The notes beneath the pieces are model-generated. The model made no database searches. It was given only the letters and a program-made list of their open reading frames with translations, and had not been told where the DNA came from. 64,000 nt of DNA from Isosphaeraceae bacterium (GTDB lineage: Bacteria; Planctomycetota; Planctomycetia; Isosphaerales; Isosphaeraceae), in contig JAXMBD010000014.1 of NCBI GenBank assembly GCA_046350035.1, positions 53,077 through 117,076 on the forward strand. Reading direction: 5' to 3'. Made by a program: the position numbers and the translations under genes. Of the stretch, positions 46,053-64,000 are shown one piece after another; the stretch's first letter is position 1, and every line of letters starts with the position of its first letter.

Positions 46053-49000
46053 ATGCCGAATACATGCCATCAAGTCGTCCTCGACCCCGACCGCCTCGCC
46101 GCGCTGCGAGCGTCCGGCCTGCTCGATAGCCCGCCGGAGGCTAGCTTCGACCGATTAACCCGGCTGGCTACACGGTTCCTCCGGGTACCCGTAGCGATCA
46201 TCTCCCTGGTGGACGCCGGGCGTCAGTTCTTCAAGAGCAGTGTGGGCCTGCCAGAGCCATGGGCTAGCCGTCGCCAGACCCCGCTGACGCACTCGTTCTG
46301 TCAGCTTGTCGTCGCCTGCGGAGATCCCCTGATCGTACGCGATGCGCGTTCCGACCCTCGCGTGCGAGAGAATGATGCGATCCGCGACCTGGGGGTGGTG
46401 GCGTACCTCGGGATTCCGCTGCGGACGTCCGACGGCCATGTCCTGGGCGCGTTCGCCGTGATCGCGGGCGAGCCGCGCGATTGGACCGGGGACGACGTTC
46501 AGATCCTGGCCGACCTGACGGAGTCCGCGATATCCGAGATCACCCTCCGGGCCGAAGCCGTCAAGCTGAGGAGGGCCCAGGAGCAACACGCGGTTCAACA
46601 CGGGACCGTAACGGCCCTGGCCGAGAGCGAGACGCTGCCCGAGGCCATTGGACGCGTCCTGCGGGTCATCGGAGAGGGGCTGGACCTCGACGTTGGCGAG
46701 TTCTGGGCCGTTGACGACGAATCGGGCTGGCTCCGGCGCGACCCGGTCGACTGGCGCTCGGGGCGGGTCGGGCCCGACTTTTCGAGGGCCGTTGAGGGCC
46801 TGGCGCTGCCGAAGGGGCTGGGATTACCCGGTAGGATCTGGCAGACCGGGGGCCCGATCTGGGTCGAGGAAGATGATACGGGCCGCATGCCCGACCCCAC
46901 GAGCCCCCTGGCTCAGCACGGACTCCGAGCCGCTTTCGGCTTCCCCATCTGGGACGAACGGGGCGTATTAGGGGTCATGACTTTTCTTTCGAGGAGCCTT
47001 CAAAACCAGGACGACGCATGGTTCCAGTTCCTCAAGACTCTCGGCGGCCAGATCGGCCAGTTCGCGGAACGCCGCCATGCCGAGGAGGAAGTGGCCCGGC
47101 TGAATGCCCACCTGTCCGGGATCCTGGACGCCGCCACAGCGGTCTCGATCATCGCCACCGACATCCAGGGGGTGATCACGACCTTCAATTCGGGGGCCGA
47201 ACGCCTGGTGGGGTATCGGCGAGAGGAATTGATCGGTATCGCGACACCGGAGATTTTCCACGACGCCGCCGAGCTCCAGGCCCGGGCGAGAGACCTGGCC
47301 GCGACGCTGGGACGCCCCGTGTCCGGCTTCGAGGCGTTCGTCGCCGGCCTGGCGACAGGGGCGAGCCAAGAACGGGAGTGGACCTACGTCCGCAAGGACG
47401 GCGGACGCCGGCGTGTCCGCCTCAACGTCTCAGCCGTGGGCTCCCCGGATGGGACGATCCGCGGCTACCTCGGGGTAGCCCTGGACGTGACCGAGGAGCA
47501 CGAGGCAGCCCGCCGCCTGGAAAGGAGCGAGGCCACGCAGCGGGGCATCGTCGAATCCTCGTTCGACGCCCTGATCTCGATGGACGCCGAGGGCTACGTC
47601 GTCGAGTTCAACCCGGCGGCCGAATCGATCTTCGGGTACCCGCGCGAGGCGGCGATCGGCCGAAAGCTGTCCGACCTGATCGTCCCGCCCGAACATCGCG
47701 AGGCACACCTGAAGGGCCTGCGGCGCTACCTGGAGACGGGTAGCAAGCAGGTGCTGGGCCGCCGGATCGAAATCGAAGCATGCCGATCCGACGGCCGAAG
47801 GATCCCGATCGAGCTGGCGATCAGCGTGGTGCCGATGGACGGGCCGCCGCTGTTCACCGCCTCGTTGCGGGACATCACAGACCGCCGCCGTGGCGAGGCC
47901 GAGTTGAAGGACCGCGAGGCGAGGCTGCACTCGCTCATCGACTCCGCGGCCGACGGAATCCTCGTGATTGACGAGTGCGGGCGGATCGAGACGTTCAACC
48001 CCGCCGCCGAGAAGCTGTTCGGCTACGCGGCCGATGAAGTCCTGGGTCGAAACGTCTCGCTCCTGATGCCGGGAGCCGAAGCGGCTCGGCACGACGGATA
48101 CCTTGCGAGATACTTCGCCACGGGGCAGGCACGTGTCATTGGCCTGGGGCGTGAGGTCGTCGGGATGCGAAAGGATGGGTCGGAGTTCACGATGGAGCTG
48201 GCTGTCAGCGTGATGAGGCTCGACGGCGGCGTGCGGTTCACGGGGATCGTCCGCGACGTGACCGAGCGGCGCCGGGTGGAGTCCGACTTGCGATCCTCCA
48301 ACGCTTTGCTGCACGCCATCCAGAGAGCCCACCAGCGGTTCATCACCGACGAATCACCGGGCGGGCTCTTCAGCGACGTGCTCTCCGATCTCCTCGGGCT
48401 CACGGGCAGCGCCTACGGCTTCATCGGCGAGGTATTGCACGATGACTTCGGTCAACCCTACCTCAAGACCCACGCGGTGACGAACATCGCCTGGGACGAA
48501 GCCACACGGCGGCTCAACGATGTTCGCGCGCAAGAGGGCCTTGAGTTTCGCAACCTGCGTACACTCTTCGGGGCAGCGCTGACGACGGGCGAGGCCGTGC
48601 TCTCGAACGACCCGGCCCGAGATCCGCGCCGGGGCGGACTACCGCCGGGCCACCCACCGCTGGATTCCTTCCTGGGGCTGCCCGTACGCCGAGCCGGGAC
48701 GATGGTCGGGCTGATCGGGCTGGCAAATCGCCCAGGGGGCTATGACGAATCGGTGGCGGCCTACCTGGAGCCGTTGCTCAGCACCTGCGCCAGCATCATC
48801 GAAGGTTACCGCAATGAGCGACGCCGGCAGAAGGCCGAGTCGGACCTCCAGGCGAGCAAGGAAGCAGCCGAAGCCGCGAGCCGCTCCAAGAGCGAGTTCC
48901 TCGCCAACATGAGCCACGAGGTCCGCACCCCGATGGCGGCGATCCTCGGCTACGCCGACATGATGCTCGAACCGTCGCTGAGACCCCCCGACCGCGACAG

Positions 49001-50387
49001 CGCGTTGCAGGCGATCCGCCGCAACGGCTCGCATTTGCTCCAGATCATCAACGACATCCTCGACCTCTCCAAGGTTGAGGCCGGCAAGCTCGAAATCGAA
49101 CCCATCCCCTACTCCCCCTGGCGTGTGGTCCTCGAGGCGATCTCGGGTCTACGGGTCCGGGCCCAGGAGGGCGGGGTCGAGATCGAGGCCGACCCGACCG
49201 GCCCGCTGCCGGCCTCTTTGCGCATCGATCCCACGCGGGTGCGCCAGGTGCTCGTGAACCTCGTGAGCAACGCGATCAAGTTCTCGCCGCCCGGGGGGAT
49301 CGTCTCGATCCGCCTGGGGACCGCCGCCGACCGCACGGCGCTGCACTTGGAGGTAGAAGACCACGGCATCGGCATGACGCCCGAGCAGCTCGGCCAGCTA
49401 TTCGCCCCGTTCCAGCAGGCCGATAGTTCGACCACCCGTCACTTCGGCGGGACGGGCTTGGGCCTGTCGATCACTCGCCGATTGGTCGAGGCGATGGGCG
49501 GTCGGATCGCCGTGGAGAGTGCCGTCGGGCTGGGCAGCCGGTTCACGGTCTGGCTCCCCATGGTATTCGACCCGGACCGGACCGAATGGCTGGCGCCGGA
49601 GGAATTGGCCACGAGGGCGGCCCCGGATCCGCAACCCGACGATTCGCTGCCGGATCGGCGTCTGAAGGGCCGCGTGTTAGTCGCCGAGGACAGCGTCGAT
49701 ATCCGCCGTGTCCTGCTATACCACCTCCACCGGCTCGGCCTGGAAGTCGAAGTTGCCGAGAATGGTATACAGGCGGTCGACATGGCCCAGGCTCGCCCGT
49801 TCGACGTCATCCTCATGGACATGCAAATGCCCGAACTCGACGGCTACGGGGCCACGAGTTCGCTGCGGCGGCGTGGTTACAGGAAACCGATCGTGGCCCT
49901 GACGGCCCATGCGATGCGCGACGACCGGGAGAAGTGCATCCGGGCCGGCTGCACCGACTACCTGACCAAGCCCGTCCAGCCCGGCCACCTAGCCGACGTC
50001 CTGGCCGCCTACATCCCGCCCGGGCCAAGCGGGCCATTCGGGGACCATCCTCCCAGGGGGACACCGGCCGACCGCGGCGGCATCTCCTCGGAATTCCGGA
50101 GTGACCCCGAGATGATGGACCTCGTTCGGGCCTACGTCGAGAGTTTGCCGGTGACGGCGGCGGGGCTGCGGAGCGCCGCCAGGAAGGGCGACCTGAACGT
50201 TGTGGCCGAGCTCGCACACCGGACCAAGGGGGTCGGCGCCATGTACGGTTACCCCGCCCTAACCGAGCAGGCCGCGCTCATCGAGGCGGCGGCCCAAGAT
50301 GGAGGCGAGGCCGACCTGCTGAACGAACTGCTGGACGAGATGGACGACCTTGTCCACCGGGTAGCCCAGGGCCTTATCGTCCCCTGA
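46053..50387 (+). CDS. multi-sensor hybrid histidine kinase (GAF-GAF-PAS x3-GAF-HisKA-HATPase-REC-HPt)
   Basis: PAS cores '[18 protein letters not shown]', '[18 protein letters not shown]', '[18 protein letters not shown]'. H-box '[13 protein letters not shown]', '[19 protein letters not shown]', REC '[24 protein letters not shown]', HPt-like '[14 protein letters not shown]'. Confidence 0.9.
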
Positions 50388-50396
50388 ATGGCCGGC

Positions 50397-52534
50397 TCAA
50401 TGCTCGCGGAATGGAGCGTAGTGCCCCTCGGACTGATCCCAGAGGAATACGGTCCACATGTAGCTGCGGTAAGCAACCCGCATATTCTTGCGCAGGAAGA
50501 GTTCGATGCGGGCGCCGGGGTATTCCCACCGCAGGTTCTTGCCTCGGGTCCGGAACTTCTCCCGGTTGACAACCACCCAGAGTCGCTCGTGCCGCTTGCA
50601 AGCGTCGACGAGGTCGTCCAGCGAGGCGATGGTTTCGGCGCCGCCGTTGCGATCGATCAGCCGTCCCCCCTTGAGCATCACGAAGTCGTGGAGCAGGGGC
50701 ACGGTGAGGTCATAATCGACGCGCCCGGCTTCCAGGTAGGCCGCGTGCGGGTGCGGCTCGTTGGCCGCGATCGCGTCGCCGGGCCGGAGCTGACCCCGGA
50801 CGAACCGAAAGGCGCCCGTGGAGTCGTTGAGGATCTTGGAATCGTAGGAGTCCGCGATACGCCAGGGGGCCCAGTCGAGGAGGAATGCCAGCAGGAGCGG
50901 CAGCGTCAGCAGAGCGGCAACCCGGCGGTCGTCACGCGTGCCGCCCGAACCGGTCGCGGACGACACCCAGTGCACGAGCAGCCCGAGGCCGCGGAGCGTC
51001 AGCAGAAGCCAGAGCGGGATCAACCAGTACTGGTAGCGGAGGCTCACGTGGGAGACCATCAGGTTCGTGAGCGCGACCCCCGAGGCGAGGAAGAACAGCA
51101 GGGTCCATGCGATACGGCCTCCTCGCGCGACCAGCAGCGGGAGGGCCGCGAGCAGGATGAGGCTGGGGGCGACGTGCAGCCGCGAATAGCCCAGGAACAG
51201 CGAGGCGAAATTGTAAGGGTCCCAGAAGTGGGGCTTGATGCTCGCCTCCACGTTCGGCGAGACGCCCTCGGTCCGCGTCAGGCAGAGCGTCTGGAATACG
51301 ACGAGGTCGAGCACGATGAAGCCGAGCGCTACCGCCGTAACGATCGCCAGCCGGATGTTTGACGGCCACCCGGCGTCCCGCCCCAGCAGGAACAGGCCGA
51401 TCGCCAGCTGGAAGACCATGATGGCCGTGATCTCCTGGCTCAGCACGGCAACGAGGAACGCCAAGACCGTGAGATAGCGGTACTTCTGCGAAGGGGCACC
51501 GGCGAAGCCGAGGTGGAACCAGTAGACCGCCAGCAGCGCGAAGAACTGTTGCTGCTGGTAGAACCGCACGAGGTGTGACGAAAAGATCGCGAAAGGGTGG
51601 ATACTGAAGAAAAACGCCGTGCCCAGGCCAACCCAGGGGCTCCGCATCAGCCGCTCGGCCAGGCGATACGCCAGCAGGGCGGTCGCGACTCCGAAGGCGG
51701 CGCAGGGCAGGCGCATCGCCCAGAGGTTCTCGCCGAATGCCCAGACGATCGCCCCGATGAGGTAGTGGTAGGCGGGGCTCCTCGTGTAGTAGACCCCCTC
51801 GGGCACGAACGCCGGCGCGCCCGTCCGGGCGATCCCGACGACCGCCTGGCACGACGCGTATTCGTCGTCGTCCAGGGGCTGAAAGTCGAGCTTATAGATC
51901 CTCAGGACGCCGCAACCCACGAGCAGGACCACCAGCAAGGGCCACCAGGCGCGCGACCTCGGCAGCTGGATCAAGCCGTCGATCGCCCGACGCGGCAGCC
52001 GGGCCAGGGCGAGCGGCGAGCCCGCTGCCAGCACCAGGATGGCTGGCCATGTGTAAGGCAGCCGGAACAGCAACGCTTCGTGCCGTTCGTTCCAGGAATT
52101 CTCCACCAGGAGCGCGGCCAGCAACACGGCGGCCGGCAGCATCAGGAGCCTCCCGATCCGCCGGGCCGCCCGGTCCGTGGCATGGGCGGCGGCCTCGCCC
52201 CGACGACGCGCACTCTGGACCGAACCGACCACCCCGCCCGTCGCCAGCCCCACCGCGATCGCCCAGGATCCGGCGATCCAGCCGAGCTTGGCGCGTAGGA
52301 TGCCGAGGTTATCGACGGCGACCCCTCGATAGACGGTCGCGGGCCAGGGGCCGAAGGGCGTGCGTGCCGGTCCCAGGATCGTCGCCTCATTCGGCGGCCC
52401 CAGATCGCCGTGGGATGACTGGACGCGGCAGGTCCAGGCCGTGGCGGCATCGGTCGCGAACCGGATGCGTTCGCCGCCGGCGAGTCGTGCCTGGCCATCG
52501 ATCGCCACACGGGGTGCCCAGCTGAATCCTCGGG
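50397..52534 (-). CDS. GT39/ArnT/PMT-like GT-C membrane glycosyltransferase portion (third frame segment of a split 1,171-codon gene)
   Basis: 'LDDDEYASCQAVVGIARTGAPAFVPEGVYYTRSPAYHYLIGAIVWAFGENLWAMRLPCAAFGVATALLAY', followed by many TM helices and a soluble C-terminal domain. The ORF track gives 50397..52571. Confidence 0.75.
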
Positions 52535-53220
52535 GCTCAGCGCGCAGAGCCGCACCTCGACACGGTTCCAACCGGCCCGGATCAGCGGACGGACGTCGTA
52601 GGCCGAGTAGCCGCCGATGGCCCGGTCGCGCCCTAACGCCTTCGCATCGCGTTCCTCGGGCAGGATCGGTACCGGGTCGTGGGGCATCACACCCTCCCCT
52701 TCCTCCTTGACCGGGTCGTACGTTCCCGGCAAGTCACTCCGGGTCGTTGCCCTCGCCTTGTCGCGGGTCACGTTCATCGTGTTTTCTCGCGGCTTGAAGG
52801 CGAGCTGACTGGGGTCGCCGTGGCGTGGCGCCTCGAACCGGTCTCCGACGAACAGCGAGCCCACCTCGTCGGGGTCGAGCAGTTCGGGCGCGGCCGGCAG
52901 ATCGGCACCACGCGGCGCGCCGAGGATCCAGTCGCCCGAGTCGAGGTCGGGGTTGCCGATGAGGGCGGGGGTGACGCGGCGATCGTTGAGGAAGAGGTCG
53001 TAGTTGCGGTTCGCGGCGAGGCGGATCCAGGCGTCTTCGGGTATCTCGGGTAGGTCCCAGGTCGCCGAGAACCAGACCGGGTCGTCGGAGCGGGCCCGGT
53101 CGTCGCGCGCCCAATGGCCGGTGAAGGGTGTGGTCATCGCCTCGGGATCGAACGATTGGAAGTGGAGGTCGGGCGTGGTGTGGCCACCCCGCCCCGGTTC
53201 GACCGCCGAACGCCAGGCGA
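52535..53220 (-). pseudogene. middle frame segment of the split GT-C fusion gene (beta-sandwich module 2)
   Basis: Within ORF 52142..53296, only 'AWRSAVEPG...FTGHWARDD...WIRLAANRNYDLFLNDRRV...YDVRPLIRAGWNRVEVRLCALSP' looks protein-like. The flanks of the ORF are R/P/G junk. Confidence 0.6.
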
Positions 53221-53912
53221 GGGTCGTTGTAGCGGGGCTCGGTCCAGTCGTACCTCGGATCGAAAGGCGGCACCGGCTCGGCCAGCCATCCCGCATCCGA
53301 GTCGATGCGGATCCGATCGCCCGACCACAGCAGGATCTCCCCTTCGATCTTGACCATCGCGGGGGCCTGGCGCGACTCGATCTCCACCGCGATGACGTTA
53401 TCCCCGGGCTTCAGGTGCGGTGTGATATCGTGGACGCTGGGTAGCCAGTCGTTGCGGTGCGACGACCACTGGTACTCGCGGGGGAAGTTCAACGCCAGCG
53501 CCGCGGGCGAGGAATTGAGCAACTGTCCGGGCTCGTTTGAGCCGGTCTGGAAAGGCCGGGTTGGCCGCCAGAGATAGACCCGCCCGCATGGGTTCCGGTT
53601 GACGCAGATCTCGTAAGCCTGGAACGGGGCCACCACCATCCAGGCGTGCTTCACGGGCCCTGGCAGCACCACGTGGCGGCGGAAGTAGCCGGCGTAGGAG
53701 GGGTCGCCCGGCGCGGCGATCCAGTCGCCCCGCAGGCTCCGCCGCTTGATCGCGGGCCCGGGGCTCGCCAGCCAGTGGCCCATCGCGAGGCCCAGCTCGA
53801 TGGCCAGCACCGTCGCGATCGACGCGGCGACCGCGAGCGCCTTCGCGGCCCGACCACCCTCGGGGGATCGAAGGGCTGCCCGGAGCCGGCGGACGATCGA
53901 TGCGGCACTCAT
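53221..53912 (-). pseudogene. first frame segment of the split GT-C fusion gene (TM anchor plus beta-sandwich module 1)
   Basis: 'AKALAVAASIATVLAIELGLAMGHWL' (TM), 'AWMVVAPFQAYEICVNRNPCGRV', 'LKPGDNVIAVEIESRQAPAMVKIEGEILLWSGDRIRIDSDAGWLAEP'. ORF 52734..53912 then degenerates into R/P-rich sequence. Confidence 0.6.
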
Positions 53913-55234
53913 GGCTTCCGCGCCTTCCGCTCGAACTCGACGGCTGCTTCGGTGTCGCCCTCGCGGAACGCCGCGAGCATCGCGTTCTCGTAGCTGGAGG
54001 AGAGGACGATCGCCTTCGTCGGCATTTGGAAGACGTCGTACGTCGCCTTGATCTGCCGGATCAGACGCTCGAGTTCCTCGCGTCGCCAGGTCCGGAGATA
54101 GGCGAACTGGAGAGCGTAATTCGCCTTCAGGTTGCAGGGCTCGCGTCGGAGGACTTGCTCAAGCCACTCGCATGCGAGGTCGTTGCGCTGTCCGTTAAGG
54201 GCGTGGAGCCCGGCGCGGAGGATCGCACGGAGAGCTTCCCGGTGGACTGCGCCGCCGGGAGGGCTGGAATCGACCAGAGCCAGGTACTCGTCGACCGCCT
54301 GCGCGTAGCGACCCTGGCGCTCAAGCAAGGTGGCGCGGAAGAGGCGTCCCTCGGGCGTCCCGACCCGGTCACGCCGGAAGTCGATCAGGCCGAGCTGCGC
54401 CACGAAGAAGGTGTCCTCGCGGAGGGCGGGCAAATCGCGGGCGGCGAGGCGGAGCCGTCGCTCGGCCTCGTCATAGTGGCCTCGGGCAACAGCCTCGCGG
54501 CAGCGGTCGAGCTCGAGCGAGGCGAGCAAAATGGGCGTCATCGCGACGACTGCACCGATGGCGAAGGTCGTCGCCGCCGCGGCCGCGCCCCGGGTCGCCC
54601 TGCGACGGTTAAGCCGACCGCCGGGGAGGCATTCGGCGATCACCAGCAGCCCCGTCCCGAAGATCGCTGCCCCCCAGCCGAGCTTGGCGAACTGGCAGAA
54701 CCGATTCGAGTAGCCGAGCGCCTCGAACCAGGTCATCAAGCGGCCCCACTGGAAGGCCGCCAGGCCGGAACTGGGCATACGGACGACGTTGATCTGGCGG
54801 GGCGTATCGACCATGTAGATGTAGTCGTTCCAGCCGGTCCGGCTGAACTCGAGGTTCGTTGGCAGGTCGCCCCCGAGCCACGTCAGGTTCTCGTGCTGGA
54901 TGTGCAGCCAGTTGGCTCGCGCCGACAGGGAAGGTTCCAACGCCATTACCACATACGGGAAGAAGAGCTGCGATGCGAGGAAGGCCCCGGCGAGCATCGC
55001 CTTGCGGTCACTTGTCCGGCGATGCCACGCATGACCGACTCCCATGACAACCGCGAAACCACCGCAGGTGAGCCGGAACGGGATCGCCGAGCGCGGTTTC
55101 GCCGTGAGGCAGCGATACGATCCATCCGCCTGCTCGCGGAGGCCGATCGGGACTTCCATCCATGGGCGGACCAACGAAAGGCCCAGCAGCGCCGCCGACG
55201 CCAATGCCAGCCCGATCGAGGCAAGTCGATGCAT
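53909..55234 (-). CDS. polytopic membrane protein with C-terminal TPR-like helical repeats
   Basis: Hydrophobic segments ('IGLALASAALLGLSL', 'AMLAGAFLASQLFFPYVVMAL', 'LGWGAAIFGTGLLVIA', 'TFAIGAVVAMTPILLASL'), then 'GHYDEAERRLRLAA...QGRYAQAVDEYLALV'. ATGA overlap with the downstream gene. Confidence 0.6.
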   Translation of the reverse strand: MHRLASIGLALASAALLGLSLVRPWMEVPIGLREQADGSYRCLTAKPRSAIPFRLTCGGFAVVMGVGHAWHRRTSDRKAMLAGAFLASQLFFPYVVMALEPSLSARANWLHIQHENLTWLGGDLPTNLEFSRTGWNDYIYMVDTPRQINVVRMPSSGLAAFQWGRLMTWFEALGYSNRFCQFAKLGWGAAIFGTGLLVIAECLPGGRLNRRRATRGAAAAATTFAIGAVVAMTPILLASLELDRCREAVARGHYDEAERRLRLAARDLPALREDTFFVAQLGLIDFRRDRVGTPEGRLFRATLLERQGRYAQAVDEYLALVDSSPPGGAVHREALRAILRAGLHALNGQRNDLACEWLEQVLRREPCNLKANYALQFAYLRTWRREELERLIRQIKATYDVFQMPTKAIVLSSSYENAMLAAFREGDTEAAVEFERKARKP

Positions 55235-56718
55235 TAGCGGGCCTCCCCATCACCCGGGGTCGGCCGGATTCGGTCTCTCGGTTCGAGGATTTGGTAGCCA
55301 TCGAGGATGACCCGCTCTGCGGTCGAAAGGCCGTTTCGGACTTCGATCCAATCGCCGTCCACGACACCAAGAGCCACCTCTTGCGGGCGGAAGCCGTCCC
55401 CCTCGACGATATAAACCAGGCCGCGCCCGGCCGTGATGGCGGAAACGGCCGAACGCGGCAGGCAGTCGACCTCGTCCTTGGCTTCCACGGTGCTGAATCC
55501 TGTCATGCCCGGCACGACGCGTACCTCCGCATCTACCAGGGTCATCCGCACGGCGAAAGTCGCGGGCCACTCGGGCGCACCGGTGCCCATCGGCCGGATA
55601 GGACGCGTCGATTCGGGGCCCCCGAGTTCGTAGGTCACGAACGGGTTGACCCATGCCACTTCCCCCCGGAAGTATCGGTCGGGGTAAGCCTCCAGGCGAA
55701 CCTTGGCCGGATCGCCGACTTTCATGCGACCGTACGAACCCTGGTCGAAGTTCGCCTCGAACCACCAGGAGGAGGCGATCAAGAATCCGGGCTTGCCCGG
55801 ATCCTGGTTGTATTCCCCTTCATGGACGAGGCACCGTTCGATGAGCCCGTCGGCGTTGGCGTACACCCGGTGGTCGGCCAATTCGGCCTGGCGGTGTTTG
55901 AGGGCCAGCTCGGCTTCGCGGACCGCGGACTCGGCGATCACCAGGCTTTGGGTGACGCCCTGCGACGACATGCCCAGGTTGAAACGCGCCTCACGGATCG
56001 TCGCCTCGAGGGCGGTCAAGGCGATCTGCTGGTCGATCACCATCGCGCGGGAGCCGAATCCTTTCTTAATCAGGTCCAGGTCCATCTGGATGCGCTGGCG
56101 ACGCAATTCGGACTCCTTCTCGGCGGCTTCCAGGCGGATGCGATCGCGTTCGGGCCGCTCTTTCTCCAGCACGTAGGCCGATCCGATCTTCACCCGCTCG
56201 AGCTCCGCCCTGGCCGTCTCGAGCGCGGCCTCGGCGGCTTCGGCCTTGAAGCGGGCCTTGGTCGAATCGACCTCGGCCACCAGTTGGCCCTTGGTAACCC
56301 GCTGGCCCTCGGCTACGAGCACGCGGGAGATCTTGCCCATGGGAATGATCGGTACGACATAGGGCTCGGTGCGGACCAGCCCCTCGCCAAGCGCGCGGTA
56401 TCGAAGTGCCCGCCGGGTCAGTTGCGTCGTCGAGACCGGGAATGGCTTGCCCAGCTTCCGATACAGCGAGGGATAGCCGAACTTGGAGGTGGTGATCCGG
56501 CTCGACGGCGACCAGTAGCCAGGCAAGATGATCGCGATCAGCGTGGCCGCCCCCGTCGCGGCGGACACGACCAGTAGGAAGCTGAGGGCGGTGTTCCGGC
56601 GAACCAATTCCGGAACCCGCACAAACATGGACTTGGCGGCGTCCCACAACCAAGACCAGGGATTTGCAACAACGAAAATCAGGCCGGCTTCGTTTCGTTT
56701 GCCCTGGATATCTCTCAT
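55234..56718 (-). CDS. HlyD-family membrane-fusion (periplasmic adaptor) protein
   Basis: N-terminal TM 'ALSFLLVVSAATGAATLIAIIL', lipoyl-like 'GKISRVLVAEGQRVTKGQLVAEVD', long coiled coil, 'RVYANADGLIERCLVHEGE', 'PGMTGFSTVEA'. Confidence 0.85.
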   Translation of the reverse strand: MRDIQGKRNEAGLIFVVANPWSWLWDAAKSMFVRVPELVRRNTALSFLLVVSAATGAATLIAIILPGYWSPSSRITTSKFGYPSLYRKLGKPFPVSTTQLTRRALRYRALGEGLVRTEPYVVPIIPMGKISRVLVAEGQRVTKGQLVAEVDSTKARFKAEAAEAALETARAELERVKIGSAYVLEKERPERDRIRLEAAEKESELRRQRIQMDLDLIKKGFGSRAMVIDQQIALTALEATIREARFNLGMSSQGVTQSLVIAESAVREAELALKHRQAELADHRVYANADGLIERCLVHEGEYNQDPGKPGFLIASSWWFEANFDQGSYGRMKVGDPAKVRLEAYPDRYFRGEVAWVNPFVTYELGGPESTRPIRPMGTGAPEWPATFAVRMTLVDAEVRVVPGMTGFSTVEAKDEVDCLPRSAVSAITAGRGLVYIVEGDGFRPQEVALGVVDGDWIEVRNGLSTAERVILDGYQILEPRDRIRPTPGDGEAR

Positions 56719-57345
56719 CGGATGTCTTCAGTCCCCGCGACGGGGTCATCGATCAACACCTTCCCGCCACGAACTTGGGCCTAACGGTCAACGGGGCCGG
56801 CCCGTGCCCATGACCCTGTTACGATTCGGATTGTCCCTACCAGGCGTCGCGCGACCTGGTTCGGTCATGCTTGCTCCTCCAGGGCATTTTCGGGGCCCAA
56901 CTCGCGCCCACTCGCGTGTACGGACCTCAAGAGACCCCGAAACACGGCTTCCGCCTGCGATTTTCGAATCCCCACCCGCCAGGATTCTAGGACGGCGAGC
57001 GCCCGTGAGACGGATCACCGACCGGATCGTCTCGTTTTGAGACGTCTGGTCGCAAGCTGACACGCGGCGACGATTCCGGAGGGCCTAATTCTGCCCCGAG
57101 ATCGACGCCTTGCGACGAAGCAACGTGCGTTGCAAATGGGCCAAACTCTTATCAGAACGGCTGATGCGATGGCACCTCGGCCTTTTCCTGCACCAAAATC
57201 CCTCGACGGAACGACCAAATTGCCCCCCCGGGCGGTTCGGCATCGCCTTCGTGATGGTGTCTCCTCGTCGGTGGCGGCACGACGAATCCGAGCCGCCTCC
57301 AAGTTCACGGGGAACTGGCCCATGCAGGCCAAAGGGAGACTACCG

Positions 57346-58767
57346 ATGAAGATCGCCGTGGTGGGGACGGGATATGTGGGACTGGTCACGGGGACTTGCC
57401 TGGCCGACTCGGGCCGCGACGTCATCTGCATCGACCGCGACTCTTCCAAAATCGCCCGGTTGCTGGAGGGCGGGCTCCCGATCTACGAGCCCGGCCTGGA
57501 CGTGTTGGTCATGCGAAATGTGCAGGCCGGGCGCCTTTCCTTCGCCACGGACATCGCTGCTGGCATCCGCGAGGCCGATCTCGTGTTCCTCGCGGTCGGC
57601 ACACCGCAGGCCCACGACGGCTCGGCGGACCTCTCGGCCCTGTTCGCGGCGGGTTGCCAAATCGCCGATTGCCTCACATCGCCCAAGACCATCGTAATCA
57701 AGAGCACCGTGCCGGTCGGGACGAATGCCGAGTTGGCCCGGCGGATGGCCGAGCGGACGAACGTTCCATTCCAGGTCGCCAGCAACCCCGAGTTTCTCCG
57801 CGAGGGTTCGGCCCTCGAGGACTTTCAGAGGCCCGATCGCGTTGTAATCGGGGCGCGCATGCCCGAAGTGGTTTGCCAGCTCCGCGCCCTGTATACCCCG
57901 TTCCTCGCCGGGGGCCGGCCCTTCCTCGCGATGACCCCCGAAAGCGCCGAAATGACCAAATACGTCGCCAACTGCCTTTTGGCGACGAAGATCAGCTTCA
58001 TCAACGAGATGGCGAACCTCGCCGGAGCCGTCGGGGCAGAGATCGACGACGTCCGTCGGGGTATCGGCCACGACCACCGGATCGGCTTCCAGTTTTTGGC
58101 GCCCGGCGTCGGCTATGGTGGCAGCTGCTTCCCGAAAGACGTCCGGGCGCTGTCGCACCTGGCGCAATCGGCCGGCGTTGCGGCCCGGCTGATGGCGGCA
58201 GTTGATGAGGCCAACGAGGCTCAGAAGGAGATCCTCGGCCGCTCCATCCTTGAGAGTTTCGGTCCGCAGGCCCGTGGGCGCCGGGTGGCGATCTGGGGCC
58301 TGGCATTCAAGCCCGAAACCGATGATATCCGCGAGTCGCCGGCGCTTCGGCTGATCGACGACCTGCTCGCCTCCGGCGTCGCCCAGATCCGCGTTCACGA
58401 CCCGGTTGCCCAGGATCACATCAGGGCAATCTATGGCAATCGCCTGATCTACTGCTCCCAGCGTTACCAGGCACTCGAGGGTGCCGATGCGCTGGCGATC
58501 GTGACTGATTGGGAGGAGTACCGAGATCCCGACTACATCTTGATGGCCGCTCTCATGCGGGTGCCCCGGATTTTCGACGGCCGGAACATGCTCGACCCTC
58601 ACCGCGCCGCCAACTTTGGCTTCTCCTATCGGGGCATCGGTCGCACGAAGGTTGACGCCCCCAATCGCGCCAAGGGCAAAGCCTCGGCCCACATGCCGAC
58701 GATCGAACCAAAGCACCTCCCCGCGAAGCCGAGGACGGCGATCCTGCCGACCGTCTCGGTCGCTTGA
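57346..58767 (+). CDS. ugd: UDP-glucose 6-dehydrogenase
   Basis: 'MKIAVVGTGYVGLVTG', 'KSTVPVGT', 'SNPEFLREG', catalytic 'GYGGSCFPKDV'. ATG at 57346 follows AAAGGGAG. Confidence 0.92.
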   Translation: MKIAVVGTGYVGLVTGTCLADSGRDVICIDRDSSKIARLLEGGLPIYEPGLDVLVMRNVQAGRLSFATDIAAGIREADLVFLAVGTPQAHDGSADLSALFAAGCQIADCLTSPKTIVIKSTVPVGTNAELARRMAERTNVPFQVASNPEFLREGSALEDFQRPDRVVIGARMPEVVCQLRALYTPFLAGGRPFLAMTPESAEMTKYVANCLLATKISFINEMANLAGAVGAEIDDVRRGIGHDHRIGFQFLAPGVGYGGSCFPKDVRALSHLAQSAGVAARLMAAVDEANEAQKEILGRSILESFGPQARGRRVAIWGLAFKPETDDIRESPALRLIDDLLASGVAQIRVHDPVAQDHIRAIYGNRLIYCSQRYQALEGADALAIVTDWEEYRDPDYILMAALMRVPRIFDGRNMLDPHRAANFGFSYRGIGRTKVDAPNRAKGKASAHMPTIEPKHLPAKPRTAILPTVSVA

Positions 58768-58847
58768 ATCGACCTTGTCGGACCGAACCGAAAAGCCCGC
58801 GGGAGCGGCGATGTCCGCCCCTCCCCGTCCGCAGAAGGGGCCCAGCC

Positions 58848-60020
58848 ATGTCGGCGGGCCCTATGACCCTGAACCAGTCGCCAGCACAAGGGAATTCCAA
58901 CATGAGCCTTGACCTCTCCTCAACGGCCGTCATGGACGCCTTCGAGTATCAATCCGTCAATGTAAGACGTGCCACACACGCCGAAACGAACCGGCCGACC
59001 CGGCACTCGGCGGCCCCCCGGATCGCCTTTAGCTTCGTCGTTCCCGTGAAGGACGAGGAGGCCACCCTCGGTGAGCTGTATCGCCGGATCAAGGAGCAAA
59101 TCCGTGACGACGAGCCGTTCGAAGTAATCTTCATCGACGACGGCAGCCGCGACGGCTCCTGGGGGGCGATCGAGGACCTCGTCGCGGCCCACCCGGGCAT
59201 TGTCCGAGGACTTCGGTTCCGCCGCAACTGCGGCAAGGCGGCAGCCCTGATGGCAGGCTTCCGCGCGTCGAGGGGCGAGATCCTTTTCACCCTCGATGCC
59301 GACCTTCAGGACGATCCCAAGGAGATCCGCCGGTTCCTCGCCAAGCTCGACGAGGGGTTCGACCTCCTCAGCGGCTGGAAGAAGGTCCGGCACGACCCCT
59401 GGCACAAGGTTCTCCCGAGCCGCATCTTCAACCGCATGCTCAGCCGCGTGACGGGGGTCGATCTGCACGACCATAACTGCGGCTTTAAGTGCTATCGCGC
59501 CGAAGTTGCCAAATCGCTGACTCTCTTCGGCGAATTGCACCGGATGGTGCCCGCCCTGGCCGCGATCGAGGGCTACCGCGCGGCGGAAATCGAGGTTCAG
59601 CACCACCCCCGCAAACACGGCGTCAGCAAGTACGGGTTCGAGCGTTACCTCCGCGGCTTCGTCGATATGCTCACGGTTGGCTTCCTTCGCAAGTACCGCG
59701 AGCGGCCGACTCACTTCATCGGCGGCGTGGCCGCCTTCGCCCTGGCGGGCTCGCTCGCACTGCTCGTGCTGGCCATCTCTGCGGGCATCTACGGGCTCTC
59801 GACGCTCGCACTGGGCTCGATCGCCTTCAGCGCGGCCCTGTTGGGCACGGCAACATTAAGCGTGATCTGCGGCCTGATGGTCGAACTGACCATCCGAGGG
59901 GGGCTCCGCGAGAGCTGGCGACTGCCGATCATCGAGGACACTGCGAGCAACGCCTCGCCGATGGCCCGCCAGTTTCCGGCCGCCGCGCCGGTTCCGGTCG
60001 CCTATGGCCTCGGAGCCTGA
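58848..60020 (+). CDS. GT2 polyprenyl-phosphate sugar synthase-like glycosyltransferase (ArnC/GtrB/DPM1 type)
   Basis: 'FSFVVPVKDEE', 'VIFIDDGSRDGS', 'NCGKAAALMAGF', 'DADLQDDP', two C-terminal TM helices. The start is uncertain (58848, 58863 or 58902). Confidence 0.85.
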   Translation: MSAGPMTLNQSPAQGNSNMSLDLSSTAVMDAFEYQSVNVRRATHAETNRPTRHSAAPRIAFSFVVPVKDEEATLGELYRRIKEQIRDDEPFEVIFIDDGSRDGSWGAIEDLVAAHPGIVRGLRFRRNCGKAAALMAGFRASRGEILFTLDADLQDDPKEIRRFLAKLDEGFDLLSGWKKVRHDPWHKVLPSRIFNRMLSRVTGVDLHDHNCGFKCYRAEVAKSLTLFGELHRMVPALAAIEGYRAAEIEVQHHPRKHGVSKYGFERYLRGFVDMLTVGFLRKYRERPTHFIGGVAAFALAGSLALLVLAISAGIYGLSTLALGSIAFSAALLGTATLSVICGLMVELTIRGGLRESWRLPIIEDTASNASPMARQFPAAAPVPVAYGLGA

Positions 60021-60089
60021 AAGGGCCCGGAGGACCGGCGAAGTTTCAAACGCTTTCATCCCATCTACCCCACTAGAGAGGACAATCGA

Positions 60090-61418
60090 ATGCCACCCCT
60101 TGACGTGAGCTCCAGGTCGGGACGCCTCAAGATCTTGATGATCGGTTCAACCTATCCCCGCCACGAAGCCGACTACGCTGTGCCGTGGCTCCGCGAGACA
60201 GTGCGTCGGCTGACGGAACGCGACCACGAAGTCACCGTCCTCGCCCCTGCTTACGCCGGGCTGGGGCGCCACCGGATCGACGGAGTTCCGGTTGAGCGAT
60301 TCCGCTATGCCCCTCGCGGCTTGGAGCACCTGACCCACGAGCAAGGTGCGCCCAACCGAATCCGCAAGCCGATCTACCAGGCCCTCGGGGCCCCTTACGT
60401 GGCTTTGGGGGCCGTGGCGTCGGCCCGATTGGCCCTCCGCAAGCGATTCGATGTGATCCACGCCCATTGGCCATTCCCGCACGGGCCTATCGCCGCGGCG
60501 GCTCGGGCCGCCTGCGGCGCGCCCATCGTCGCGAACTGCCACGGGGCCGAGTTCGCCATGGCCGCGCGGAAGACGTGGGTCCAACCGCTCCTGAGGAGGG
60601 CCCTGGTCGGCGCCGATCGGCTCCTGGCCAACAGCAGGCACACCGCCGAACGCGTGCACAGGATGAGCGGTCGAGAGGCCGAAGTGATCCCCTACGGCAC
60701 AACAGTCCGTGCCAGGCCCACCCCCGCGCCTCGAAATCCTGTTCCTCGAATCCTCTTCACCGGCCGACTGATCCAGAGGAAGGGTGTCGAATACTTGATC
60801 CGTGCCATGCCCCACATCCTCGCCAGCGGGCCGGCATCCCTCCAGATCACGGGCGACGGGGACTGCCGCGCCGGGTTGGAGTGCCTGACGCGTGAGTTGG
60901 GCCTGGCCGATTCCGTGCAGTTCCTCGGCTTCGTCGATAACAAGAAACTCGACGCCCTTTATGCCGGTTGCGACGTGTACGTCAACCCGTCGATCATTGA
61001 CGACAACGGCGACACCGAGGGCCTCGGGGTAGGTCCTATTGAGGCCTTCTGCCACGGTCGTCCGGTCGTCGCCTCGGCGGTTGGCGGAATTGTTGACGTG
61101 GTAATCCACGAACGGACCGGACTCCTTGTACCCGAGAAGGACCCGGAGAGGCTGGCCGGTGCGATCCGCAGGCTGATTGAGCGGCCGCTAGAGGCCAAGG
61201 CGCTCGCCCAGGCCGGGCTCGAGTACGCTCGACGGCATTTCGACTGGGACCGGATCGTCGAATCCCTGGTTGACGTTTACCACGGGGCAATCGCCGAACG
61301 GGGGTCCCGCGGCCGTTCTTTGACCTTCCGACCCGCATCGGCCCCTCTCGGCGTCTCGTCGCAACTCCTGTCGCAAGTTCCGAACTCCTTTCTTCCTCGC
61401 GAGGGTGCCCTACCGTGA
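60090..61418 (+). CDS. GT4-family (group 1) glycosyltransferase
   Basis: 'ILFTGRLIQRKGVEYLI', E-x7-E 'EGLGVGPIEAFCHGRPVVASAVGGIVDVV', 'GLLVPEKDPERLA'. Confidence 0.88.
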   Translation: MPPLDVSSRSGRLKILMIGSTYPRHEADYAVPWLRETVRRLTERDHEVTVLAPAYAGLGRHRIDGVPVERFRYAPRGLEHLTHEQGAPNRIRKPIYQALGAPYVALGAVASARLALRKRFDVIHAHWPFPHGPIAAAARAACGAPIVANCHGAEFAMAARKTWVQPLLRRALVGADRLLANSRHTAERVHRMSGREAEVIPYGTTVRARPTPAPRNPVPRILFTGRLIQRKGVEYLIRAMPHILASGPASLQITGDGDCRAGLECLTRELGLADSVQFLGFVDNKKLDALYAGCDVYVNPSIIDDNGDTEGLGVGPIEAFCHGRPVVASAVGGIVDVVIHERTGLLVPEKDPERLAGAIRRLIERPLEAKALAQAGLEYARRHFDWDRIVESLVDVYHGAIAERGSRGRSLTFRPASAPLGVSSQLLSQVPNSFLPREGALP

Positions 61419-62389
61419 TTAAGCGCCTCACCCGGCATCAGCTTGCTCGGCTCGGCTACCTCGCGGTCGCCGCCATTGCGGCGACGATGATGGTGCGGAC
61501 GCTCCGCGAGGCAGGCGCCCCCTTCCTGACGGCGGCGTCGTCGATACCGGCCTGGGCCCTCGCGACTGCCTTCGGGCTTGCACTGGTCTACCGCGTGATC
61601 AATGCAACCGGTTGGAGTCTGGCGCTGCGTATCCTGGGCCATCCGACCGATGTGGTGTCAACCGCGAGGCTCTGGCTGGCGTCCGAAGCCTGCCGATGGC
61701 TCCCCGGAAGCGTCTGGGCCTATGGTTCGCGGACGCTTCTCGCCACGCAGAGGGGCTTGAAGGCCCAGGCGGTTGGTGCCAGTCTGGGCCTGGAGCTAAT
61801 CACGACCGTGGCGGCCTGGCTTGTGGTCATGCTGATCGGCGGGCGGTGCTTCTGGCAACGTCTGCTTCCCAACGGGTTAGAGGGCCTCAACGCCTGGGCG
61901 ATCCTCAGTCTTATCCTGGCCCTCGCGGCGGCCGCCGCTGCGGCCTTCCGTCTCTCCCCCCGCTTGCGCCGGTCCATAGCCTCGAAATGGGGCCAGCTCG
62001 CCTCGCTACTACGCTGCTCATTCGACCCCCGATGGCTTGCAGCGACCTTCCTGTTCTTCGTGGCGATGGCCGTCTTCAATGGCCTGGCCCTGTTCATCCT
62101 GGTTCAGGCCTTACCGGACCGCGACTGCCCGCTCTCCGCCGTCATCGCCGCGAACGCGGCAGCCTGGTTGGCGGGCTTCTTCGCTTTGTTCGCCCCGGGC
62201 GGGCTCGTCGTCCGCGAGGCGTGCCTCGCCGCCCTACTCGCGACCTGGCTCGGACCCGAACTGGCCCTGGCGCTGGCGCTCGCCTGGAGGCTGGTCCAGA
62301 TTCTCGCCGAGATCTGCTGCTTTGTGGTGGTTGTGGTCTGGGGCTTGCCTACAAATATTGGGGTCGTATCCACACCCGCTGCCGCTTAA
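61415..62389 (+). CDS. UPF0104 / lysyl-PG-synthase-TM-like 'flippase-like' membrane protein
   Basis: ~8 hydrophobic segments. 'RVINATGWSLALRILG', 'WLASEACRWLPGSVWAYGSR', 'AAWLAGFFALFAPGGLVVREA'. GTGA overlap with the GT4 stop. Confidence 0.7.
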   Translation: MIKRLTRHQLARLGYLAVAAIAATMMVRTLREAGAPFLTAASSIPAWALATAFGLALVYRVINATGWSLALRILGHPTDVVSTARLWLASEACRWLPGSVWAYGSRTLLATQRGLKAQAVGASLGLELITTVAAWLVVMLIGGRCFWQRLLPNGLEGLNAWAILSLILALAAAAAAAFRLSPRLRRSIASKWGQLASLLRCSFDPRWLAATFLFFVAMAVFNGLALFILVQALPDRDCPLSAVIAANAAAWLAGFFALFAPGGLVVREACLAALLATWLGPELALALALAWRLVQILAEICCFVVVVVWGLPTNIGVVSTPAAA

Positions 62390-62572
62390 CCCACGTCCAT
62401 CGCACCGCCGGCCCAAAGTCCCGTGACATCGCGACTCCCATGCGAAGGACTCAACGAGGCTCGAGAGTGGGCCAAACCGGTTTCTTGGCGGTTTAGTCGC
62501 TACGGACATTCAGGCTCGCCCTTTCTCGGCCGACGCTCGATAATTGAGCCACACCCGAGGGAGGATGGCAGG

Positions 62573-62922
62573 GTGGGACGCCGACAAGCCTTGACCGACG
62601 AGCAGTGGGTCAGGATCCAGGGCCTCCTCCCCGGCAAGCCGGGCGACCCGGGGCGGATGGCCGCCGACAACCGCCTCTGCGTCGACGCGGTCCTCTACCT
62701 CCTGAAGACCGGCAACCCCTGGGAGGACCTGCCGGCCCGCTTCGGCAAGCCGAACTCGGCGTGGAAGCGGGTCGATCGCTGGTGCCGCGCGGCTGTGTGT
62801 TGGAGCGGATCGCGGCGCCCCTGAACGACCCGGACCTGGAGGAGGTCCAACTGCACTCTTGCAGCATCAAGGCCCATTCGGTCGCCTCGACGGGCCGGCG
62901 CCAGGCCGCCGAAAAAAACTAG
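62573..62922 (+). pseudogene. IS5-family transposase N-terminal fragment (frameshifted, truncated)
   Basis: GTG at 62573 after GGGAGG. 'LTDEQWVRIQGLLPGKPGDPGRMAADNRLCVDAVLYLLKTGNPWEDLPARFGKPNSAWKRVDRWCRA', shift in the 'gtgtgt' tract near 62795, then 'LERIAAPLNDPDLEEVQLHSCSIKAHSVASTG'. It ends where the next element begins. Confidence 0.6.
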
Positions 62923-62939
62923 GCCGGAAGAGTCTGTTT

Positions 62940-64000
62940 GACGCGTGGTGTTGGATACGTTATTCCCGAGACGGTGATCGCTTCGAGGAGGCGCCCCATG
63001 CCGCGACGGAGTGCGCGACCCGCCCCGAGCGGGTCCTGGATCTGCCCGCCCACACGCGGGCCTGCCCGGCTCGCTCCGGGCCGCTATGGTCGGCCGTCAC
63101 GGCAAGGCGGGCGGTCGTGACGTTGGAGGGCCCCCTGCAGCTGCGGCTCCAGATCCGCAGCTGCCGCGATCCCGGGTGCCCCCGATACAAGGCCTGCCTC
63201 CGGCCCGAGCAGGAAGGCCGGTTCGTCCTGCCGCAGCACGAGTTCGGCCTGGACGTCGTCGCGCTGATCGGCCGCCTCCGCCATGCCGAGCATCGCAGCG
63301 TGCCGGAGGTCCGCGCCGCATTGGTTCGCCGCGGCGTGCCGATCTGCGTGCGGAGCGTCGGCAACCTCCTGGACCGGTACGACGAACTCCCGGCCCTGTC
63401 CTGCTCCGATGCCGCCCGGCTGCGGCGGATCGCCGCCGGGGCCGGGCGGGTGATCCTGGCCATCGACGGCCTGCAACCGGACGTCGGTCACGAGGTGCTC
63501 TGGGTGCTCCGCGACGTGCTCTCCGGCGAAGTCCTCCTGGCCCGCAGCCTGCTGCCCGCGACGCAGGACGACCTGGCGGGGCTGCTGTGCGAGGTCGCCG
63601 GGGCCCTCGGCGTGCCGGCGTGCCCATCGCGGGGGTCGTCTCCGACGGCCAGACGTCGATCCGCAAGGCGGTCGAGCGGGCATTGCCCGGCGTGCCCCAT
63701 CAGCTGTGCCACTTCCATTACCTCCGCGAGGCGGTACTGCCGGTGTACGAGGCCGACCGCCACGCCAAGGTCCGGCTCAAGAAGGAGGTCCGCGGCATCC
63801 GGCCGATCGAGCGGAAGCTCGAACGCCGGGACGACCCCGAGGCCGAGGCGGCCCGGGGCTACTGCGGACGGTCCGCTCGGCCTTGACCGACGACGGCCGC
63901 CCGCCGCTGGAGGCCTCGGGATTGAAGCTGGCGGGCCGGCTGACGAAGGTCGCCGACAGCCTGGGCCGGGTGGCCGCAAAGGGGGACCCGAACGAGCTGA
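62940..64000 (+). pseudogene. DDE transposase of a second IS (family not assigned), at least two frameshifts, runs off the window
   Basis: Frame 0 (no stop to window end): 'TLEGPLQLRLQIRSCRDPGCPRYKA...LAIDGLQPDVGHEVLWVLRDVLSGEVLLARSLL'. Shift near 63625 to 'IAGVVSDGQTSIRKAVERALPGVPHQLCHFHYLREAVLPVYEADRHAKV', and shift near 63860 to 'VRSALTDDGRPPLEASGLKLAGRL'. No clear start codon. Confidence 0.55.

Follow-up and report, generated by a model that had tools for sequence, protein, structure and literature searches.

Periplasmic glycosylation by three components, i.e., a GT2 glycosyltransferase, a flippase and a GT-C glycosyltransferase, is an established scheme (PMC11127046; PMC8035078), which also comprises the pentofuranose systems (PMC11127046). 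Likewise, glycolipid operons that combine a glycosyltransferase with a predicted flippase in analogy to MprF have been described, namely GpgSDF of Pseudomonas aeruginosa and HexSDF of Clostridioides difficile (PMC11483062; PMC10128005). The present analysis deals with a seven-gene cluster of an Isosphaeraceae metagenome-assembled genome (MAG), which shares parts with both kinds of systems and is located in a 64-kb window, i.e., the whole stretch of DNA that was analyzed. One arm of the cluster encodes the nucleotide-sugar dehydrogenase Ugd, a GT2 and a GT4 glycosyltransferase and a flippase-like protein, the other arm a HlyD-type adaptor, a membrane protein with five transmembrane (TM) helices and tetratricopeptide repeats (TPR) and a GT-C enzyme. 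Judged by its homologues, the locus appears to represent one instance of a gene set that is restricted to the PVC superphylum (Planctomycetota, Verrucomicrobiota and relatives). It is well supported that this cluster represents one functional module which acts outside the cytoplasm and is not an Arn locus.

Little is understood of the envelopes of Planctomycetota and Verrucomicrobiota, and most of their surface glycoconjugates have yet to be charted. The gene set addressed here is compact and was encountered in roughly a hundred species genomes or more. Its core comprises six genes, to which some lineages add an outer-membrane factor (OMF) and regulators. Two of the encoded families have no functional annotation, i.e., the five-TM/TPR protein (hereafter TPR-membrane protein) and a lectin-fused GT-C enzyme of ~1170 aa, and it is unusual that the periplasmic adaptor is paired with a glycosyltransferase in place of a pump. 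Literature searches yielded the precedents mentioned above and no paper describing this cluster, in agreement with the original prediction, which had been made from the sequence of the window and regarded the cluster as undescribed.

Encoded proteins and their counterparts in described systems

Both arms diverge from an intergenic region of 627 bp (56719-57345) in a GC-rich window, which features 63-71% GC across the cluster region. On the minus strand, the genes of the adaptor (55234-56718), the TPR-membrane protein of 441 aa (53909-55234) and the GT-C enzyme (50397-53912, with two frameshifts) follow each other, while ugd (57346-58767), the GT2 gene (58764-60020), the GT4 gene (60090-61418) and the gene of the flippase-like protein (61415-62389) are located on the plus strand. 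The list of open reading frames (ORFs) and the sequence itself agree with the original prediction on the positions of all seven genes and the spacer. Direct reading of the sequence also recovered the three start/stop overlaps named there, i.e., TAATG between the adaptor and TPR-membrane genes (55236 to 55232), ATGA between the TPR-membrane and GT-C genes (53912 to 53909) and GTGA between the GT4 and flippase-like genes (61415-61418). The TPR-membrane gene is translationally coupled to the adaptor gene as well as to the GT-C gene. Moreover, the motifs GGSCFPKD, IFIDDGSRDGS and DADLQDDP are present in the translations, and the family assignments of all seven genes were reproduced with Pfam and NCBIfam.

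Ugd, a UDP-glucose 6-dehydrogenase, matches the N-terminal, central and C-terminal UDPG_MGDP_dh domains of Pfam (4e-60, 1.5e-36 and 1e-30, respectively) and the NCBIfam models for NDP-sugar dehydrogenase (428 bits) and TuaD (3.7e-137). The GT2 protein (Glycos_transf_2, 6.9e-30) displays two C-terminal hydrophobic, i.e., TM, helices in its translation. The ArnC likeness proposed for it is confirmed by the PDB, where ArnC (9hwj, 4e-41) precedes GtrB (5eke, 1.9e-23) and DPMS (5mlz, 6.9e-14). Its score against the ArnC model of NCBIfam (1.1e-42, 146 bits) stays below the equivalog cutoff of 529. The protein is thus clearly of the ArnC/GtrB/DPMS type and falls into the superfamily of ArnC, but it is not an ArnC equivalog. 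The ORF of GT2 opens with TTG at 58764 and overlaps the stop codon of ugd; because the homologues comprise 347-389 aa, the ATG at 58845 is the more likely start, which leaves a gap of ~77 nt after ugd. The third protein of this arm, a putative cytoplasmic GT4 glycosyltransferase, matches Glyco_trans_1_4 (2.3e-37) and Glyco_transf_4 (1.4e-21). Among solved structures, a sucrose-phosphate-synthase-type protein ranks first and PimB' (3okc, 3.1e-22) second, with PimA being matched too, and the model for GlcNAc-PG synthase scored 55.5 bits against a cutoff of 480. The flippase-like protein is of the MprF type (Pfam PF03706, LPG_synthase_TM/UPF0104, 1.7e-10) and gave no match in a PDB sequence search. 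It is the sole flippase candidate of the gene set, as no GtrA or small multidrug resistance (SMR)-type (ArnE/F) flippase gene is conserved among the loci.

When both frameshifts are bridged, the GT-C gene yields a product of 1175 aa with 55-70% identity to intact proteins of 1158-1177 aa over 96-100% of its length. More than 100 relatives of ~1120-1220 aa from Planctomycetota and Verrucomicrobiota match it over nearly the full length. Among the Pfam models, only the broad PMT_2 passes (2.2e-9), whereas PF02366 (PMT) remains under its cutoff (22.1 vs. 22.7 bits), and a MIR domain is absent from the Pfam matches. An AlphaFold model was generated for the Aquisphaera homologue P0008 (pLDDT 76.4, pTM 0.76). 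It consists, in this order, of an N-terminal TM helix, ~480 residues of beta-sandwich, three TM helices, the GT-C core and a C-terminal alpha/beta domain, with the beta-sandwiches and the alpha/beta domain being predicted to lie in the periplasm. Foldseek placed ArnT (5ezm, E 2.8e-7, TM-score 0.61 on the target) at the top for the core, as the proposed likeness to ArnT implies, followed by oligosaccharyltransferases (OST), Pmt4, Pmt1-Pmt2 and AftA, while a sequence search of the PDB with the core gave no match. The beta-sandwiches matched N-domains of GH78 rhamnosidases and a fungal lectin; together with the Bac_rhamnosid_N matches of homologues in Pfam, the model confirms the beta-sandwich fusion that had been postulated for this enzyme. 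An LDDDEY loop follows the first core helix and is invariant or nearly so in homologues, with D687, D689 and E690 (P0008 numbering) being invariant in 25 sequences, and the loop is intact in the GT-C gene of the window. Within the second beta-sandwich, residues 319-437 of P0008 (window ~52600-52950, minus strand) are predicted to be disordered, yet they feature the near-invariant motif PELLDPDEVGS..RFE.PRHGDP. This conserved insert may be a partner-binding or metal-binding loop.

The adaptor matches HlyD_D23 in Pfam (1.5e-11) as well as RND_mfp (TIGR01730, 101.5 bits, over the cutoff of 94.9) and EmrA (4.7e-20) in NCBIfam, and its PDB matches are MexJ, MacA and EmrA. By these similarities, it is a membrane-anchored periplasmic adaptor of the membrane fusion protein (MFP)/HlyD-EmrA type, which may start at an internal Met, residue 31. 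The TPR-membrane protein shows a weak match to TPR_16 (1.5e-4), and no model of Pfam or NCBIfam covers its membrane half. In its AlphaFold model (pLDDT 88.6), five TM helices are combined with a TPR domain at the C-terminus and a loop that is conserved; according to the positive-inside rule, both the loop and the TPR domain are predicted to face the periplasm. In Foldseek, the TPR half alone was matched (MamA, PilF), whereas no fold of the PDB corresponded to the membrane half. The family is small and specific, with 138 representatives at E<=1e-30 among 1.84 billion proteins, nearly all of them of ~440-470 aa.

Compared with the three-component systems (GtrA/B/C, CsbB/GtcA/YfhO and those for pentofuranose), the cluster likewise encodes an ArnC/GtrB-type GT2 with C-terminal TM helices, a candidate flippase that is small and polytopic, and a GT-C enzyme whose first periplasmic loop is acidic. 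However, its candidate flippase is of the MprF type (PF03706) and not of the GtrA or SMR type, its GT-C enzyme is about twice the usual size and features N-terminal lectin-like sandwiches, and further co-conserved parts are added, namely a GT4, an MFP adaptor and the TPR-membrane protein as well as an OMF in Verrucomicrobiota. With the Arn (PmrHFIJKLM) pathway, which modifies lipid A with aminoarabinose, and the related Rgt, Lgm and Flm systems for lipid A/core, the cluster shares Ugd, a GT2 resembling ArnC and a GT-C fold resembling ArnT. In contrast to Arn, the cluster is devoid of ArnA, ArnB, ArnD and ArnE/F, Ugd is missing from most loci, and the GT4/MFP/TPR/OMF parts as well as the further domains of the GT-C enzyme (~1170 aa vs. 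about 550 aa for ArnT) are additional. The mycobacterial route to phosphatidylinositol mannosides, lipomannan and lipoarabinomannan (PimA/PimB' as GT4, Ppm1 as GT2 and PimE/MptA/MptB/EmbC as GT-C) follows a similar logic, with a cytoplasmic GT4 acting on a lipid, a flip of the product and its extension by GT-C enzymes using a polyprenyl-phosphate-sugar made by a GT2. This analogy is confined to function: the genes are clustered here, MFP, TPR and OMF parts are present, and the phyla differ.

The adjacent GT4 and flippase-like genes resemble those of GpgSDF and HexSDF, but the cluster lacks a deacetylase, and the pair is linked to GT2, GT-C and MFP genes. An EmrA/HlyD-type adaptor with an N-terminal anchor and, in 23 loci, a TolC-like outer-membrane efflux protein (OEP) are reminiscent of tripartite exporters (EmrAB-TolC, MacAB-TolC, DevBCA-HgdD), whereas the only conserved inner-membrane partners are the novel five-TM/TPR protein and the GT-C enzyme instead of an ABC, RND or MFS protein. 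The TPR domain with its predicted periplasmic position recalls the TPR scaffolds BcsC, PelB, AlgK and PgaA of synthase-dependent exopolysaccharide systems, although the TPR of the cluster is anchored in the inner membrane and not fused to an outer-membrane barrel.

Linkage of the genes in Planctomycetota and Verrucomicrobiota

Co-conservation was investigated in 81 related loci, comprising annotated neighborhoods in Aquisphaera, Mariniblastus, Tautonia and one verrucomicrobial isolate (L001-L004) and 77 loci from a scan of GTDB species genomes. All of them were searched with the window proteins, with flanks being defined as the sequence within 10 kb. In 66 of 68 loci, the adaptor gene directly precedes that of the TPR-membrane protein. 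When contiguity is judged strictly, the adaptor, TPR-membrane and GT-C genes are contiguous in 56/65 loci, and the nine exceptions are mostly start/stop overlaps of a few nucleotides. The TPR-membrane protein was found in 72 of 82 loci, the window counted. Thus, the order of the adaptor module (HlyD, TPR-membrane protein, GT-C enzyme of ~1170 aa) is almost invariant. On the other arm, GT2 adjoins GT4 in 46/49 loci and GT4 adjoins the flippase-like gene in 48/52, and all three are present in the flanks of 39 out of 45 loci with enough sequence. The two triads are co-directional in 31 loci, divergent as in the window in 4, convergent in 3 and arranged otherwise in 1, and they are non-adjacent in 26 of 57 loci. 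That the linkage has been kept in two phyla in spite of such rearrangement strongly indicates a shared function.

These numbers bear out the co-conservation of the gene set, which the original prediction had proposed to examine, whereas the divergent layout, which had led to the notion of a seven-gene divergon, is not conserved. Likewise, Ugd does not belong to the core set but is a lineage-specific accessory, which was found near the cluster only in L001, L006 and L007 (Isosphaeraceae-type) and as a partial match in L023 (a Pirellulaceae MAG). The cluster had also been considered self-contained. This has to be amended with regard to a TolC-like OMF in Verrucomicrobiota and to sigma-54/two-component regulators, which recur as neighbors.

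In detail, a gene for a TolC-like OEP is located beside GT2 in 23 verrucomicrobial loci, typically in divergent orientation to GT2 (e.g., 2260-3795 in L003). The earlier statement on the window that the adaptor has no OMF beside it is correct and applies to the planctomycetal loci, too, but not to these 23. With regard to pumps it holds throughout, as neither the window contains an ABC, RND or MFS pump nor do the 81 loci share a conserved neighbor cluster of this kind. The adaptor and TPR-membrane genes are coupled, a pump is lacking and one phylum features an OMF. This suggests that, in a trans-envelope assembly, the pair of GT-C enzyme and TPR-membrane protein stands where the pump would be. 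Genes of the ArnA, ArnB and ArnD types (formyltransferase/epimerase, DegT aminotransferase and polysaccharide deacetylase) were found neither in the flanks of the window nor in L001-L004 or the conserved neighbor clusters, which agrees with their reported absence and argues against a rearranged Arn locus.

Three Roseibacillus-type loci (L045, L062, L075) feature OEP, GT2, adaptor, TPR-membrane and GT-C genes without GT4 and flippase-like genes within 10 kb; the joint absence of the latter two fits an action as a pair. In some loci (9-11), large surface proteins adjoin the cluster. The same cluster, in a verrucomicrobial or planctomycetal layout, was also observed in MAGs labelled Bdellovibrionales, Cloacimonadota, Paceibacteria and Crocinitomicaceae (L035, L037, L038, L074), the contigs of which are probably misbinned.

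Proposed function, alternatives and the state of the GT-C gene

We consider the chances to be about even that the gene set serves to form and handle an envelope glycoconjugate at the outer side of the cytoplasmic membrane, as a regulated extension of a three-component system combined with an adaptor/TPR(/TolC) conduit. Beyond the gene families, folds and co-conservation shown above, we infer for this case the following order of steps, including a lipid acceptor, a role in export and the nature of the sugar. In Isosphaeraceae, Ugd would provide UDP-glucuronate. At the cytoplasmic face, the ArnC-like GT2 would load a monosaccharide onto polyprenyl phosphate, the GT4 would glycosylate a membrane lipid primer, and the MprF-type flippase-like protein would bring the lipid and/or the polyprenyl-phosphate-sugar to the periplasmic leaflet. 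The GT-C enzyme would then use the flipped polyprenyl-phosphate-sugar by means of its periplasmic LDDDEY loop and add one or more sugars, while its lectin-like beta-sandwiches might hold the glycan acceptor. The coupled five-TM/TPR protein and the membrane-anchored adaptor could form a complex with the GT-C enzyme and convey the product through the periplasm to a TolC-like OMF, whose gene is part of the cluster in Verrucomicrobiota. A sigma-54 activator that receives its signals from hybrid kinases would govern expression, with these kinases being linked to H-NOX in many lineages and to GAF/PAS domains here.

A more far-reaching version of this scheme is rather doubtful. According to it, the GT-C enzyme and its dedicated five-TM/TPR protein would replace the pump in an adaptor/TolC machine, so that a periplasmic glycan or lipoglycan built from polyprenyl-phosphate-sugars would be fed through the outer membrane by a PVC-confined apparatus, which would be switched by nitric oxide (NO)/redox-sensing (H-NOX) sigma-54 signaling. 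If true, this route of surface-glycan assembly and export would differ from the Wzx/Wzy, ABC-transporter and synthase pathways and provide diderm bacteria with a novel means of transporting glycans through the envelope. Additionally, it would link H-NOX/sigma-54 signaling to envelope remodeling.

Several points weigh against the proposed conjugate pathway. The assignments of all cluster members as well as the acceptor, the sugar and the processivity are read from sequences and models, and those of GT4 are generic. The cargo of the flippase-like protein could be either the lipid primer or the polyprenyl-phosphate-sugar. An interaction of adaptor, TPR-membrane protein and GT-C enzyme is suggested by gene order and overlap, and fusions of the TPR-membrane protein to the GT-C enzyme or the adaptor were not seen among its homologues, which are stand-alone proteins of ~440-470 aa. 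Furthermore, no OMF gene occurs within 10 kb in planctomycetal loci or in the window, the spacers preceding HlyD, Ugd and GT2 in the window contain no acceptable -24/-12 element, and the GT-C gene of the window is out of frame.

The third-position GC content of the GT-C gene follows frame 0 from 53912 to ~53225, frame +1 to ~52545 and again frame 0 to 50397. Six intact homologues align to it as three collinear tblastn segments with frame switches at 53223/53221 and 52547/52538. The first frameshift (53218-53223, minus strand), located by the tblastn frame switch and by reading of the sequence, is an extra C within ...AAC GAC C CTC GCC TGG..., which leads from frame 0 to frame +1. At the second (52538-52547, minus strand), located by the tblastn segment boundaries, the sequence and the ORF list, one nucleotide is missing and frame 0 is resumed. 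The two indels hence are of 1 nt each, opposite in sign and ~680 nt apart. Since frame 0 already reaches a stop at 52734-52736, before the second indel, the latter does not rescue the protein. In tblastn, the out-of-frame segment is 61-70% identical to homologues vs. 63-73% and 66-70% for the flanks. The gene lies in a single frame in 79 of the 81 related loci, which speaks against its being dead in all strains; in the MAG contigs L054 and L064, it is likewise split over two frames. Housekeeping genes elsewhere in the window show full-length domain matches and look intact. A crude scan of third-position GC flagged other sites of frame change in the window; seven overlapping ORFs taken from the gene list, ffh and a large Ig-like protein, which were inspected in this regard, represent separate intact genes. 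The interruption of the GT-C gene may be due to an assembly error or to a recent inactivation. Should the indels be genuine, the transfer step would be where the pathway is blocked in this organism.

It is unlikely that the cluster serves an Arn/Rgt/Lgm-type decoration of lipopolysaccharide, in which the GT2 would make a polyprenyl-phosphate-sugar, e.g., of a uronic acid, and the GT-C enzyme would add a single residue to lipid A or core, with the adaptor and TPR-membrane protein being accessory or unrelated to export. ArnC as the nearest relative of the GT2, ArnT as the nearest fold of the GT-C core, the adjacent Ugd in Isosphaeraceae and the annotation of one GT-C homologue as 'RgtA/B/C/D-like' would all be in accordance with such a decoration. 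Nevertheless, no annotated locus contains ArnA/B/D-type genes, the known lipid A systems operate without GT4, MFP, TPR protein and OMF, which are here conserved as much as the GT-C enzyme, and ArnT lacks the ~480 aa of lectin-like domains. Of comparably low probability is a protein O-glycosylation of the PMT/TMTC type, by which the GT-C enzyme would move a sugar from the polyprenyl-phosphate-sugar to secreted or surface proteins and the TPR-membrane protein would recruit substrates like the fused TPRs of TMTC enzymes. The Pfam matches to PMT_2 and PMT, the annotation of homologues as GT39 in the source records, the Foldseek matches to Pmt4, Pmt1-Pmt2 and OST, the predicted periplasmic position of the TPR domain and the large surface proteins beside some clusters point in this direction. 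Still, the PMT match does not reach its cutoff, ArnT ranks above the PMTs by fold, MIR domains are lacking and the neighboring surface proteins are restricted to 9-11 loci, while the GT4/flippase-like pair as well as MFP and OMF would have no role in known PMT systems.

Quite improbable is the coexistence of two independent functions side by side, i.e., the formation of a membrane glycolipid by GT4 and the flippase-like protein, perhaps with GT2, as in GpgSDF/HexSDF, and a separate one of the adaptor, TPR-membrane protein and GT-C enzyme. The triads are indeed separable, as seen from the loci in which they are non-adjacent and from L045, L062 and L075, and glycolipid operons of a glycosyltransferase and a flippase provide the precedent (PMC11483062; PMC10128005). 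Nevertheless, both triads are found within 10 kb in 39/45 loci of two phyla despite repeated rearrangement, and the GT-C enzyme requires a polyprenyl-phosphate-sugar donor, which is what a GT2 of the linked type makes. A different objection concerns this organism alone: it is possible, though somewhat short of even, that the locus is a decaying remnant with a GT-C pseudogene and no longer functional as a cluster. This would explain the two frameshifts and the stop in the original frame; the intact housekeeping genes indicate that the assembly is not generally prone to indels, and transposase-like remnants are close by. On the other hand, the out-of-frame segment is conserved as much as its flanks, the other six genes are full length with 44-72% identity to their Aquisphaera orthologues, and a local consensus error is conceivable, given that the sequence stems from a MAG and that both indels offset each other.

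Regulators, spacer and further features of the window

Left of the GT-C gene, the window encodes a sigma-54-dependent response regulator (44254-45726, minus strand), which according to Pfam consists of a receiver (REC) domain (Response_reg, 1.8e-21), Sigma54_activat (4.7e-68) and HTH_8 (6.5e-11). Homologues of this activator are present in 34 related loci in addition to the window. It is followed by a hybrid sensor kinase (46014-50387, plus strand) with three GAF, three PAS, HisKA, HATPase, REC and Hpt domains in Pfam, which is convergent with the GT-C gene at a gap of 9 nt. Hybrid kinase homologues are adjacent to the cluster in 24 loci, e.g., in Tautonia (L004), and L006 features a long convergent ORF at the equivalent position. 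Other recurring neighbors are H-NOX (18 loci), Hpt (16 loci) and single receiver domains.

In 25 of 52 loci, including L002, L003, L011, L035, L045, L046, L049 and L070, a -24/-12 element (TGGCAC-N5-nnGCw) precedes GT2 at a distance of 48-182 nt, compared with ~3.6 expected from the loci as a whole. In the Isosphaeraceae loci, such elements were not detected. Due to the lack of this element in the window, the enrichment upstream of GT2 in other lineages cannot be transferred to the locus studied here. A scan of the window for sigma-54 promoters with TGGCAC-N5-TTGCW was rejected as a source of candidates, as it returned 16 matches against 17.8 expected.

The 627-bp spacer presumably holds the promoters of both arms. 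Its repeats are short and unremarkable, and a search of positions 50000-64000 against Rfam found nothing. A perfect palindrome in the spacer, GCAACGTGCGTTGC (57120-57133), was dismissed as well, since it is conserved in no locus and 24 of 100 shuffles reached the observed count. Upstream of the regulators, a SASA-type carbohydrate esterase (42322-43314, minus strand) and a weak match to a PEP-CTERM protein (39023-40003, minus strand) were noticed. A weak MULE-like transposase remnant (63011-63886, plus strand) lies right after the flippase-like gene in a stretch of 71-74% GC, and a DDE_5 transposase gene is found at 36523-37740 (plus strand).

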